In this document: piece by piece, positions 1 to 64,000 of the stretch
How positions within the stretch are numbered: the stretch's first letter is position 1
Layout of the letters: every line of letters begins with the position of its first letter
Notes under the pieces: model-generated
Told to the model about the DNA's origin: nothing
The model's input: only the letters and a program-made list of their open reading frames with translations
Databases searched by the model: none
Program-made: the position numbers and the translations under genes
From: an uncultured Actinomycetota bacterium
Lineage (GTDB): Bacteria; Actinomycetota; Actinomycetes; Actinomycetales; Microbacteriaceae
NCBI GenBank assembly: GCA_963847285.1
Contig: CAWJZK010000016.1
Span: forward strand, 6,356 to 70,355
DNA: 64,000 bases
Direction: 5' to 3'

Positions 1-96
1 CGCAGTGCGGATCCACGCGAGGAACGTGCGCTCGTTCGCGAGGGTGAACCGGTAGTCGGGATCCTCGCCCTCGTGCCGCCACGCCGGTTCAGGCAT
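1..96 (-). CDS. DUF202/YidH-family small membrane protein, N-terminal part (runs off window start)
   Basis: Manual translation from ATG at 96: [45 protein letters not shown] is the DUF202 signature. Not in the ORF track. Confidence 0.85.
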
Positions 97-131
97 CCGC
101 TCGCTCCTCGCCATCGGTCACCTGCCTGCGC

Positions 132-1592
132 TCAGTGCGAGGAGGGCGTGGTCTCGATCTCGGTGCGGTCGCCCGACCACAGCGTGTGGAACACGCCCGG
201 CTTGTCGACGCGCTTGTAGGTGTGCGCGCCGAAGAAGTCGCGAAGGCCCTGCACGAGGGCGGCGGGCAGGCGCTTCGCGCGGAGACCGTCGTAGTAGGCG
301 AGCGACGAAGAGAACACCGGGGTCGGGATGCCGGCCTGCGCCGCGATCCCGACGACGCGGCGCCAGCTCTCCTGCGTGCCCGCGATGGCGTCGCGGAAGT
401 ACGGCGCGACGACGAGCGCGGGGAGGGCGGGATCGTCGGCATAGGCCTCGACGATGCGGTTCAGGAGGCGGGCGCGGATGATGCAGCCGGCACGCCAGAT
501 CTTCGCGATGTCGCCCTTGTGGATGTCCCAGTTGAACTGCTCGGCGCCCGCGATGATCAGGTCGAATCCCTGCGAGTACGCGATGATCTTCGACGCGTAG
601 AGGGCGCGGCGCACCTCTTCGATGAACATGTCCTGGTCTTCGGGGGCGACCTTCCACTCGCTCGACGGACCCGGCAGGTCGGTCGCGGCATCGCGCTGCG
701 CCCGCCTCGAGGAGAGGCTGCGGGCGAAGACCGCCTCGGCGATGCCGGAGACCGGCACGCCGATGTCGAGGGCGTTCTGCACGGTCCAGGCACCGGTGCC
801 CTTGGCTTCGGCCTCATCGAGGATGACGTCGACGAGGGGCATGCCGGTCGCGGCATCCGTCTGGCGCAGCACGTCGGCGGTGATCTCGATGAGGTAGCTC
901 TCGAGCTCGCCCGTGTTCCACTCGGCGAAGACGTCGGCGATCTCGGCGGGCGACCTGCCGGTGCCCTGGCGGATGAGGTCGTACGCCTCGGAGATGAGCT
1001 GCATGTCGGAGTACTCGATGCCGTTGTGCACCATCTTCACGAAGTGGCCGGCGCCGTCGGTGCCGACGTGGGTGACGCAGGGCTCGCCCTCGGCGACCGC
1101 GGCGATCGACGCGAGGATCGGGCCGAGGGTCTTGTAGGACTCGACGCTGCCGCCGGGCATGATCGACGGTCCGTGGAGGGCGCCCTCCTCGCCGCCCGAG
1201 ATGCCGGTACCCACGAAGTGGATGCCGGTGGGTCTGATCTCGGCCTCGCGGCGGATCGTGTCGTGGAAGTTCGAGTTGCCCCCGTCGACGATGATGTCGC
1301 CCGGCTCGAACCGGCTGACCAGTTCGGAGATCACGGCGTCGGTGGCCTTGCCGGCCTGCACCATGATGAGCGCCGTGCGGGGCTTCGCGAGGGAGGCGAC
1401 GAAGTCGTCGTAGCTCTCGGACGCGACGAAGTCGGCCTCGGGATGCTCGGAGGTGAGCGTGTGGGTGCGCCCGGGCGAGCGGTTGAACACGGCGACCGTG
1501 TTGCCCTCGCGGCTCGCGAGGTTGCGAGCGAGGTTCGAACCCATGACCGCGAGTCCGACGACGCCGATGTTGGCTGATTGGGTTCCAGGCAC
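132..1592 (-). CDS. gndA: NADP-dependent 6-phosphogluconate dehydrogenase (decarboxylating)
   Basis: IGVVGLAVMGSNLA, ISGGEEGA, FVKMVHNGIEY, IWRAGCIIRA, RDFFGAHTY motifs; GTG start at 1592 after GAGGAG SD. Confidence 0.97.
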   Translation of the reverse strand: MPGTQSANIGVVGLAVMGSNLARNLASREGNTVAVFNRSPGRTHTLTSEHPEADFVASESYDDFVASLAKPRTALIMVQAGKATDAVISELVSRFEPGDIIVDGGNSNFHDTIRREAEIRPTGIHFVGTGISGGEEGALHGPSIMPGGSVESYKTLGPILASIAAVAEGEPCVTHVGTDGAGHFVKMVHNGIEYSDMQLISEAYDLIRQGTGRSPAEIADVFAEWNTGELESYLIEITADVLRQTDAATGMPLVDVILDEAEAKGTGAWTVQNALDIGVPVSGIAEAVFARSLSSRRAQRDAATDLPGPSSEWKVAPEDQDMFIEEVRRALYASKIIAYSQGFDLIIAGAEQFNWDIHKGDIAKIWRAGCIIRARLLNRIVEAYADDPALPALVVAPYFRDAIAGTQESWRRVVGIAAQAGIPTPVFSSSLAYYDGLRAKRLPAALVQGLRDFFGAHTYKRVDKPGVFHTLWSGDRTEIETTPSSH

Positions 1593-1668
1593 GATGCTCT
1601 CCTCGAGAATGTGTGGGTTGCTCCAGCGTACTGCGAGCGCGGCGCAGCGTCGCGCTAGCCTGCAACGC

Positions 1669-2199
1669 ATGACCGTGGCATCCGACTCCGTCCCGCACAT
1701 CGTCGTGATGGGGCCGAGCGGGGCAGGCAAGTCGGTCGTGGGCGCCGCGCTCGCGGAGCGCCTCGCGGTCCGGTTCCCGGGACTCGACTTCGTCGACGCC
1801 GACGCCCTGCATCCGGCGGCGAACGTCGAGAAGATGCGCGCCGGCATTCCGCTCAGCGACGAGGACCGTGCGCCATGGCTGCGTCTCGTGGGCGAGACGC
1901 TCGTCGCGGGCGAGCGGGGGCGGGTCATCGCCTGTTCGGCGCTGCGGCGCGGCTACCGCGACCTGATCCGCAGCGGATGCCCCGACGCCGTCTTCCTCGA
2001 ACTCACCGTGCCGCGGCGCGAACTCGAAGCGCGCGTCTCCGATCGACCGGGCCATTTCATGCCGGCGGGGTTGCTCGACTCTCAGCTCGACTCGCTCGAA
2101 CCGCTCGGGTCCGACGAACGGGGGGTGCGGATCGAGAACACCGGCGAGCTCGAGACGGTCGTCGCGCAGGCGATCGAGGCACTCGGAGCGGACTGGTAG
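1669..2199 (+). CDS. Gluconokinase (GntK/IdnK type)
   Basis: VMGPSGAGKS P-loop, DADALHP, GIPLSDEDRAPWL, ACSALRR, HFMPAGLLDSQL; TAGCCT -10 7 nt before ATG; divergent from gndA. Confidence 0.93.
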   Translation: MTVASDSVPHIVVMGPSGAGKSVVGAALAERLAVRFPGLDFVDADALHPAANVEKMRAGIPLSDEDRAPWLRLVGETLVAGERGRVIACSALRRGYRDLIRSGCPDAVFLELTVPRRELEARVSDRPGHFMPAGLLDSQLDSLEPLGSDERGVRIENTGELETVVAQAIEALGADW

Positions 2200-62485: not shown

Positions 62486-62652
62486 TCCGTGCCTCAATTG
62501 CCTGGAAACATCCCCGCGTAGGGATCGGGTTCACCGGTCCCGGGACGTCCTCGTCTGGCTTCACGCGGCTTCAGGCTCGGATGTCGAGATTTGGGGGTCG
62601 GCTCCGACACACTGAAGAGGCCATGACGGATGGCCCTCGAAGGAGGAACCTC

Positions 62653-63036
62653 ATGAAGTACCTGATTCTGATTCAGAGCAATCCTGCGGTGGTCGAGCTG
62701 TTCGCAGGGATGACCGACGACGAGCGCAAGGCGGCGTTCCAGATCTACTGGGATGTCGAGAGCGACCTCGAGAAGTCCGGTGAGCTCGCCGATTCGAAGG
62801 CGCTGGATGAGCAGACGCAGCACTACGTCAGGCGTTCGACGGATGGACCCATCGTGACCGACGCGCCCCTGCCCGAGACCACGGAGGTGGTGACGGGCTA
62901 TTACCTCGTGGATGTGGAGAACGAGGAGCGGGCGTTCGCGATTGCGACCCGCTTCCCCGAAGCCGTCGTCGAGGGCGGTATCCGAGTCGCTCGCACCCTG
63001 ACCCAGGAAGACTTCGATGCCATAGGGGCGGCGTGA
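62653..63036 (+). CDS. YciI / DGPF family protein
   Basis: MKYLILI, VTDAPLPETTEVVTGYYLVDV; AAGGAGG SD. Confidence 0.85.
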   Translation: MKYLILIQSNPAVVELFAGMTDDERKAAFQIYWDVESDLEKSGELADSKALDEQTQHYVRRSTDGPIVTDAPLPETTEVVTGYYLVDVENEERAFAIATRFPEAVVEGGIRVARTLTQEDFDAIGAA

Positions 63037-63039
63037 CAG

Positions 63040-64000
63040 ATGACCGAACGTGTCCCGGGTCGATCCGCTGCTCCGCGGGGGCTGGTCATCGCGACCTTGC
63101 GGGCATCGGCCCCGGGCGCGCTCGGCGCGGTCATTCGTCGAACAGGGAACTTCGACGACGCAGAGGATGCGCTCCAAGAGGCGATGCTCGCCGCGGCGAA
63201 CCAATGGCCCCGTGATGGGATACCCGACAATCCGACTGCCTGGCTTATCACAGCTGCGACGCGGCGAGCGATCGACGGCATCCGGTCCGACGCGACCCGA
63301 CGGGAGCGGGAGAAGCGAGCTGTCGGGCTCGAGCGCGACCCCGGAGAGGCTGTACAGGAGGATGACACCCTCGCCGCCTACCTGATGTGCTGCCACCCCT
63401 CCCTGACCCGTGGAGCGCAGGTTCCGCTGACCCTGAGAGTGGTCGGCGGACTGACGACGAGGGAGATTGCGCGCGGCCTTCTCATGAGCGAGACGACGAT
63501 CGCACAGCGCATCGCGCGCGCTAAGACGACCCTCCGCAGATCGGGTGCACGGTTCGCGCTCCCGAGCGGCGACGAGATGCCCGCGCGGGTCACCGCGGTG
63601 CTGGACGTGCTGGGCATCATCCACACCGAGTCGCACAGCCCCGCAGAAGGCGACGCCGTGACGCGACCCGCCCTGGGAGCCGAGGCTCTTCGCCTTGCTC
63701 GCGAACTGCTGGCTCGTACGCCCGTCGGCGCCCGTTGGCGGGGAGAGGTCATGGGTCTGGTCGCCTTGATGCTCTTGACCAGCGCCCGATCGCCCGCCCG
63801 GACGGATGCCGCCGGCGCGTTGATCCCGCTCGCCGAGCAGGATCGGGCGCTGTGGCTCACAGATCTCATCGCCGAAGGAGACGGGGTGCTCCAGCGGGCT
63901 CTCACGCAATACCCGGTCGGACCATTTCAGCTGAGAGCAGCGATCGCCGCCGTGCACGACACCGCGCCGACCTTCGAAGACACCGATTGGGAGCAACTGC
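63040..64000 (+). CDS. ECF sigma factor, ECF42-like (runs off window end)
   Basis: Manual translation from ATG 63040: FDDAEDALQEAML, WPRDGIPDNPTAWLITAATRRAID, MCCHPSL, LTLRVVGGLTTREIA, IAQRIARAK, PLAEQDRALW, GPFQLRAAIAAVH. Confidence 0.88.
   Translation, partial: MTERVPGRSAAPRGLVIATLRASAPGALGAVIRRTGNFDDAEDALQEAMLAAANQWPRDGIPDNPTAWLITAATRRAIDGIRSDATRREREKRAVGLERDPGEAVQEDDTLAAYLMCCHPSLTRGAQVPLTLRVVGGLTTREIARGLLMSETTIAQRIARAKTTLRRSGARFALPSGDEMPARVTAVLDVLGIIHTESHSPAEGDAVTRPALGAEALRLARELLARTPVGARWRGEVMGLVALMLLTSARSPARTDAAGALIPLAEQDRALWLTDLIAEGDGVLQRALTQYPVGPFQLRAAIAAVHDTAPTFEDTDWEQL

Follow-up and report, generated by a model that had tools for sequence, protein, structure and literature searches.

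A gapped, uptake-signal-like word dispersed through the genomes of Agromyces and its relatives

We present evidence that the genomes of Agromyces and many of its relatives in the Microbacteriaceae carry a short DNA word in great excess, and that this word resembles the uptake sequences of two Gram-negative families. The starting point is a window of 64,000 nucleotides, the whole stretch of DNA that was analysed (contig CAWJZK010000016.1 of assembly GCA_963847285.1, positions 6,356 to 70,355), from an uncultured actinobacterium. The window lies on contig C16 of a genome that we call G000, which comprises 3.65 Mb in 40 contigs and is 80% complete. The source genus is probably Agromyces because the FbaA-like protein of the window is closest to Agromyces records (90-92% identity to four of them, at most 87% to others).

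An earlier note, made from the letters of the window alone, had estimated about 70 copies of an octamer. The estimate was a good one. There are 72 exact GGCATCCG/CGGATGCC matches, 39 on the forward strand and 33 on the reverse, and all 16 positions that it quoted are among them; its GC content of about 72% should be 70.1%. Dinucleotide-shuffled versions of the window hold a mean of 6.82 octamers (sd 2.70, maximum 16), and 0 of 100 shuffles reach 72. Genome-wide the octamer is found 3,965 times, which is 10.6, 7.5 and 1.8 times above Markov models of order 1, 3 and 5, and it ranks first by z at each of these orders. The octamer is enriched as claimed, but it is not the whole word, only the core of a longer one. 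Upstream there is a G at -2 in 85% of copies and a C at -3 in 72%, position -1 is free, and pyrimidines follow at +1 and +2. The full word, (C)GNGGCATCCG(YY), has a gap, and its 10-mer GNGGCATCCG has 3,380 copies in G000 versus 72 for the reversed control. The CATCC core is strict and the flanks are tolerant: 15 one-off variants of the core stand at 0.29-1.55 times expectation and 12 variants of the flanks at 1.2-4.4 times. One-mismatch neighbours are far from equally frequent, since the 24 such octamers have 80-855 copies each against 3,965 for the word. Neither helically phased A/T flanks nor flanking T-tracts were found beside it.

The enrichment survives nulls that keep the amino acids or the dicodon bias. 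The 10-mer occurs 2,282 times in genes, versus 201 after synonymous shuffling within each gene and 494 under a dicodon Markov null that itself contains the word's signal (five replicates each, covering 2,804 of 3,282 genes called by our own dicodon model, with approximate boundaries). This rules out a codon or dipeptide artefact. The word forces rare codons, GCA (8% of Ala) and GAT (17% of Asp), and the two frames that the note had called frequent are so: Ala-Ser (GCA TCC) is seen 1,011 times versus 20 expected and Asp-Ala (GAT GCC) 859 times versus 59. Word-spelled peptides are over-represented 1.85 and 2.06 times in the G000 proteome, compared with 0.84-1.58 and 1.02-1.40 times in five motif-poor sets, and the word is used in 56-58% of these peptides versus 0-5% in the motif-poor sets. 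An RNA-level signal is ruled out because the excess holds for sense (1,291) and antisense (991) copies alike, and an assembly or base-calling artefact because the word is in 36 of 36 congeners and in named isolates. The genes that we take to be rplY and eno lack it, as does fbaA, just as the note had said.

The density of the word depends on location. Per kb it is 5.2 between convergent genes, 1.95 between tandem and 1.58 between divergent genes, 0.82 in coding cores and 0.18 in 17 housekeeping genes. Inverted pairs of the word within 60 bp number 193 in one orientation versus 42 in the other, and the genome has 54 exact 18-bp head-to-head palindromes. Their position and orientation at convergent gene ends support the prediction that the inverted pairs sit at terminators. 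That the word is enriched at these two places, between convergent genes and within inverted pairs, is what one would expect if it were debris of a palindromic element, such as a repetitive extragenic palindrome (REP) or a miniature inverted-repeat transposable element (MITE), or a plain terminator stem. But 2,365 of the 3,380 copies are inside called genes, the flanks of the inverted pairs have no common sequence, and the word arises by substitution, since there are gaps at only 1-14 of about 150-270 orthologous word sites. Unlike a REP or MITE, it has no longer conserved unit, is mostly genic and was not spread by insertion. Such an origin is largely refuted and we consider it very improbable. 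A separate locus of Leifsonia NPDC056824 (L009) does have a local REP-like repeat with the core ACATTCGTSA, mostly confined to that locus.

The word is scarce in DNA that has no homologue in related species. Species-private DNA has 0.24 copies per kb (12 in 50.6 kb) versus 0.64-0.73 in shared DNA of the same GC content. Five phages, one temperate and four other, have GGCATCC at 1.0-2.6 times expectation versus 5.9 times in pooled host loci; the phages infect Microbacterium, not Agromyces. No plasmid of the host genera was among the 30 of 971 matches listed. A related word, CGGATCC, is avoided in three Microbacterium phages (L256-L261; 0, 4 and 1 observed for 9.7, 10.0 and 8.9 expected), and it is enriched 3.9 times in Clavibacter.

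We believe there is about an even chance that the word is an uptake-signal-like tag, driven by sequence-biased DNA uptake. The argument runs as follows. Agromyces and its kin would be naturally competent, to judge from the genes present. A surface or membrane DNA-binding component would read the GGAT-centred core, so that word-bearing DNA would be preferentially taken up and recombined in during natural transformation. Repeated biased replacement of homologous DNA would then fix the word at any site that the protein can accommodate, and inverted pairs may have been co-opted as terminators. Such a drive acts site by site, so it would explain thousands of costly sites without even spacing. Because biased uptake needs a homologue to recombine with, it would also explain the absence from private DNA.

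Conservation speaks for this reading, but not for it alone. Three Agromyces pairs of 88-89% identity were compared over about 155 kb. Of their word sites 80-82% are intact; four abundant control words reach 50-70%, two near-miss words 0-25% and one rarer control word 72-82%. Two pairs from word-poorer genomes keep 69% and 55% of their sites. The word is 94-95% identical amid flanks of 83-88%, and its N position diverges like the flank. A comparison of 21 species (12 of 35 sites viewed, changes unpolarised) shows it turning up at neighbouring positions and by way of several amino-acid changes. Strain duplicates inside G000 (3.2% substitutions) keep 258 of 282 instances. These duplicates deserve a comment of their own: regions of 88-99% identity amount to about 139 kb (contig pairs C13/C40, C17/C18, C24/C25, C5/C7 and C21/C22), and C19:30435-65069 is a second, roughly 80% identical copy of window positions ~21000-60600. 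Given these duplications in the assembly, the bin is likely a mixture of strains or of two Agromyces.

The residues encoded by known uptake sequences are mostly no better conserved than others, as far as the available text of PMC2817400 goes, which makes the conservation seen here compatible with direct selection as well. This is a point against biased uptake. In a rival explanation, an abundant chromosome protein (nucleoid-organising, repair-loading or replication-related) binds the word, and selection keeps each site. Conservation above the flanks, a sharp core with graded flanks, confinement to the chromosome and persistence in genomes without one of the Tad clusters (that on C38, see below) all suit this idea, and a dimer might bind the 54 exact palindromes, which share one spacing. 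The spacing of the sites argues the other way. They are not evenly spaced (gap CV 1.24) and are not confined to any region (0.72-1.34 per kb across contigs longer than 70 kb). On the contigs of 130-374 kb, the only ones used for this, no period between 1 and 79 kb was seen (autocorrelation stays within about 0.06 beyond 4 kb for a null sd of 0.023). Diffuse binding would also hardly give selection strong enough per site to alter protein sequences at thousands of places. We regard this explanation as unlikely.

A drive could also act after entry, if the word shields incoming DNA from a host nuclease or boosts its recombination, Chi-like, on transformed, transduced or conjugated DNA. Such a drive would mark the genome just as uptake bias does and could do without a surface receptor or a Tad cluster, in line with the pilin and Tad-lacking results given below. 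Chi and the FtsK-orienting polar sequences (KOPS) are short asymmetric over-represented words too, and in one Chi sequence the second position is free as well. Chi-type sites, however, are used in fork repair too and should be skewed to one replichore strand. No such skew is seen: forward and reverse counts on six 190-kb segments are 83/69, 69/81, 67/73, 50/49, 39/40 and 47/47, and the contig-level strand skew of the word follows gene orientation. Unlike Chi and KOPS the word has no replichore polarity and occurs about once per kb. Phages would profit from the word yet are mostly without it, and we find a post-entry drive quite unlikely.

The earlier note had proposed that a DNA-level process maintains the motif, and listed uptake bias, methylation-directed conversion and a protein-binding signal. 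A DNA-level process is supported, and uptake fits best of the three; the methylation option, with its parallel to the HIP1 word of cyanobacteria, is not supported. There methylation-directed repair or deamination has been modelled to write the word. In its favour, GGACG is under-represented in those taxa where GGATG is in excess (0.58 versus 1.86 in G000, about 1 in Curtobacterium), and a conserved orphan N6/N4 methyltransferase is present in 5 of 5 near-complete Agromyces. But the C/T change that deamination predicts is rare among single differences at discordant sites, which are scattered over the positions (3/27, 3/30, 3/40 and 0/21 are C/T). This low share rules out a C-to-T hot spot as the source. 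Phages share the cytoplasm yet have no excess of the word. The word is non-palindromic. The enzymes do not fit either: D12-class (FokI-type) methyltransferases are in 0 of 6 Agromyces searched (0 of the 5 near-complete ones), C5 enzymes are in 1 of those 5, and none of the three Pfam DNA methyltransferase classes was found in the 80% of G000 at hand. The FokI and SfaNI sub-sites that the note saw in the core are incidental. No methyltransferase co-distributed with the word was found for an internal site, the Type I/IIG and BREX classes not having been searched by family. The orphan N6/N4 enzyme is in 53 of 66 genomes irrespective of the word; it is present in word-poor Curtobacterium, Rathayibacter, Labedella, Arthrobacter and one Kocuria, whereas neither word-rich G331 nor the five genomes of the second family described below yielded it. 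This mismatch speaks against it as the writer, and we think it improbable that methylation writes the word.

The orphan enzyme (L194:1420-2376, from G008) is a solitary beta-class protein, about 60-85% conserved across Microbacteriaceae, Arthrobacter and Kocuria. Its closest solved structures, M.RsrI and CcrM, indicate no specificity. Our guess is that it is the TTAA orphan of Arthrobacter in PMC4752239; in the methylome supplement of that paper the sole 'Microbacterium' row has an unrelated motif and there is no Agromyces row. TTAA itself has 85 sites in G000, 13 of them clustered in 5.5 kb at C36:40491-46040, and four lie in an operator-like palindrome before an ArsR-like gene (C27:64682-64713).

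The word is not peculiar to one genome. In the other Agromyces genomes the 10-mer has 630-3,980 copies and is high in 36 of 36, versus 31-169 copies in 24 genomes from 23 other families. Within the family 250 genomes can be graded: 113 have fewer than 50 copies per Mb, 85 have 50-200 and 52 have at least 200. Among named genomes there are Agromyces (1,560-3,035 copies), Compostimonas (1,336) and Cryobacterium (775), while ten Microbacterium range from 143 to 2,033; at the low end are Curtobacterium (76 and 89), Clavibacter (95), Rathayibacter (83) and Labedella (96). Many word-poor genomes have a related word in its place, read from samples of 20-60 kb: CGGCATCC in Microbacterium, CGCATCC in Agrococcus and Leifsonia tongyongensis, GACATCC in Compostimonas, CGGATCC in Clavibacter, CAGGATC in G111 and G157, GGACGCC in G455 and GGAGGC in Rathayibacter. 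Curtobacterium had no related word in 82 kb. The likeness of these spellings suggests that they are homologous.

A second family has a spelling as well. CGGCATAC stands at 19-47 times expectation in Nostocoides, Knoellia and four genomes of a family that we label f23, which is probably the Nostocoides/Knoellia family because it shares the word. The pattern CGGCATMC reaches about 460-865 per Mb in 10 of 13 f23 genomes, with at most about 350 in 193 genomes of 19 other families and at most about 240 in 189 genomes of other orders (G572 and G579, both unpublished, enter this tally and no other). The rest of the class sample thus stands at background level. CGGCATAC resembles part of what we take to be a common sequencing adapter. 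Adapter contamination (L062, L068, L202-L205) is ruled out because the flanks of CGGCATAC are unconstrained. Other lineages have words of their own: a different one, GAAGGGGG, is over-represented 5-9 times in Janibacter, G408 and G424 (L065, L262, L263), and we also note GCGGAACC(A) in Microbacterium YY-03 (L042), a CTTCAGCAGG-like word in Naasia (L023), and GCGGGGA(TG) and CTACGCG in G083 (L293-L294).

What could read the word? Pfam confirms comEA, comEC, dprA and two Tad ATPases in G000, with Tad/Flp clusters on C38 and C13 and a third ATPase on C2. Micrococcus luteus requires two Tad clusters for transformation (PMC4322843, in the text available), so competence here is plausible. C38-type TadA is in 177 of 250 family genomes, and the median density of the word is 100 with it versus 32 without. 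At least 200 copies per Mb are reached by 50 of 177 genomes with this TadA versus 2 of 73 without (exact 10-mer; kin are not independent), or by 17 of 69 versus 0 of 26 when counted by genus. The cluster itself (C38:115152-119692, near a prfB-like gene) was not found in 73 of the 250 genomes, whole genera at a time. At C28:9714-12680, DprA and a downstream metallophosphoesterase share one 988-aa open frame, either a fusion or an assembly error. A sequence pattern matched the ComEA domain in 5 of 31 loci.

Several results weigh against biased uptake. The positive link to Tad holds with the exact 10-mer and weakens in a spelling-free test (in which Tad-bearing comparators mostly had about 21 kb each versus 40 kb for most Tad-lacking ones): related words are enriched 3-7 times without this TadA in Klugiella, G067, G085, G087, G111, G157 and L. 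tongyongensis. G329 and G500 have the word at full strength without it, and Labedella, Microbacterium TNHR37B, Kocuria and Arthrobacter have the TadA and no word. The comEC gene is in 68 of 69 genomes, word-rich or word-poor alike, and its presence profile is uninformative as a pointer to the reader. A regex for the class-III type IV pilin motif of a ComP-type receptor had no match in the 80% complete G000. In net charge the three minor pilins of Tad range from neutral to acidic, and by eye they show no feature that tracks the word (18 of 21 loci recovered); lacking DNA-binding character or tracking residues, they gain no support as the receptor. No report of natural transformability in any Microbacteriaceae was among the matches listed.

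How does the word compare with known systems? Two Gram-negative families are established as taking up DNA in a sequence-specific way (PMC7811141, PMC2817400, in the parts available). Like the uptake signal sequences (USS) of Pasteurellaceae and the DNA uptake sequences (DUS) of Neisseriaceae, as the accessible portions of PMC2817400 and PMC3458573 describe them, the Agromyces word is non-palindromic, within 9-13 bp, present in thousands of copies on both strands, free of replication bias and scarce in genes without homologues. It likewise has inverted pairs at terminators, lineage spellings and a strict core with weaker flanks, recalling the inner and outer core of the Haemophilus signal (PMC3458573), and peptides are doubled as in PMC2817400. 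Every sequence-level mark of uptake sequences given in the available text of the last two papers is found here. Unlike them, it comes from monoderm Actinobacteria of high GC content whose pili would be of the Tad/Flp and not the type IVa kind; it has an unrelated sequence and no flanking T-tracts, and a ComP-like receptor was not found. On present evidence it seems to behave like USS and DUS but cannot be filed with them. HIP1 and the alternative HIPs, to go by the accessible text of PMC4390886, PMC5861425 and PMC13756078, are alike in having about one copy per gene, in coding DNA, conserved beyond codon need, with alternative words in some lineages, and HIP1, too, has been suggested to act in transformation. 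The Agromyces word differs from HIP1 in being non-palindromic and in having no co-distributed methyltransferase among the classes searched; no kilobase periodicity was seen on the contigs of 130-374 kb. Micrococcus luteus, of the same order, also has two tad clusters with comEA/comEC; the available part of PMC4322843 mentions no sequence preference for its system, and the Kocuria and Arthrobacter loci compared beside it lack the word.

We found no published description of the word or of its presence in these taxa, in a search that lay outside most subscription papers and bioRxiv supplements; the sole literature match is a diagnostic probe sequence (PMC12089995). New here are the gapped form in Agromyces, the map across family and class, the second family, the tests of conservation, private DNA and phages, and the negative methyltransferase result. 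The features of the window itself are collected in Table 1.

Table 1. The word and related features in the 64-kb window (terminator roles are predictions)
Feature	Position	Strand	Remarks
Dispersed word (C)GNGGCATCCG(YY)	92..63810	both	72 octamers, 60 as full 10-mer
18-bp palindrome of two overlapping words	35170..35187		one of the 54 in the genome; predicted bidirectional terminator hairpin between convergent genes 34009-35163 (+) and 35207-35728 (-)
Inverted word pair in a longer G/C stem	26519..26537		just past gene 25192-26505; predicted terminator hairpin
15-bp palindrome made from the word, then a T run	29046..29060	+
Two word copies 15 bp apart, short local duplication	10345..10367	-
rplY-like gene	2421..3065	+	0 copies
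eno-like gene	15266..16546	+	0 copies
fbaA-like gene	53997..55028	-	0 copies

A broader conclusion is possible, though we hold it tentatively and put it somewhat short of an even chance. The Microbacteriaceae and a second actinobacterial family may share an ancient, still-drifting self-DNA recognition, which would be the first sequence-specific uptake signal in monoderms, with a receptor unrelated to ComP. The genus spellings (GGATGCC, GGATGTC, GGATGCG, GGATCC, GTATGCC, GGACGCC) would act as genetic barriers, and thousands of amino acids would have been rewritten per proteome. A comparable signal in Actinobacteria that are cultured and non-pathogenic, such as Agromyces and Microbacterium foliorum, the latter a standard host for teaching phage biology, makes the theory of molecular drive testable in an independent lineage, one that offers many natural spellings and natural losses. 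The word also accounts for a bias in codons and amino acids, one that would mislead analyses of selection. If biased uptake is wrong, the abundance and conservation of the word still point to an undescribed chromosome-wide mechanism. If it is right, a new DNA reader would be revealed and hard-to-transform genera could become transformable.

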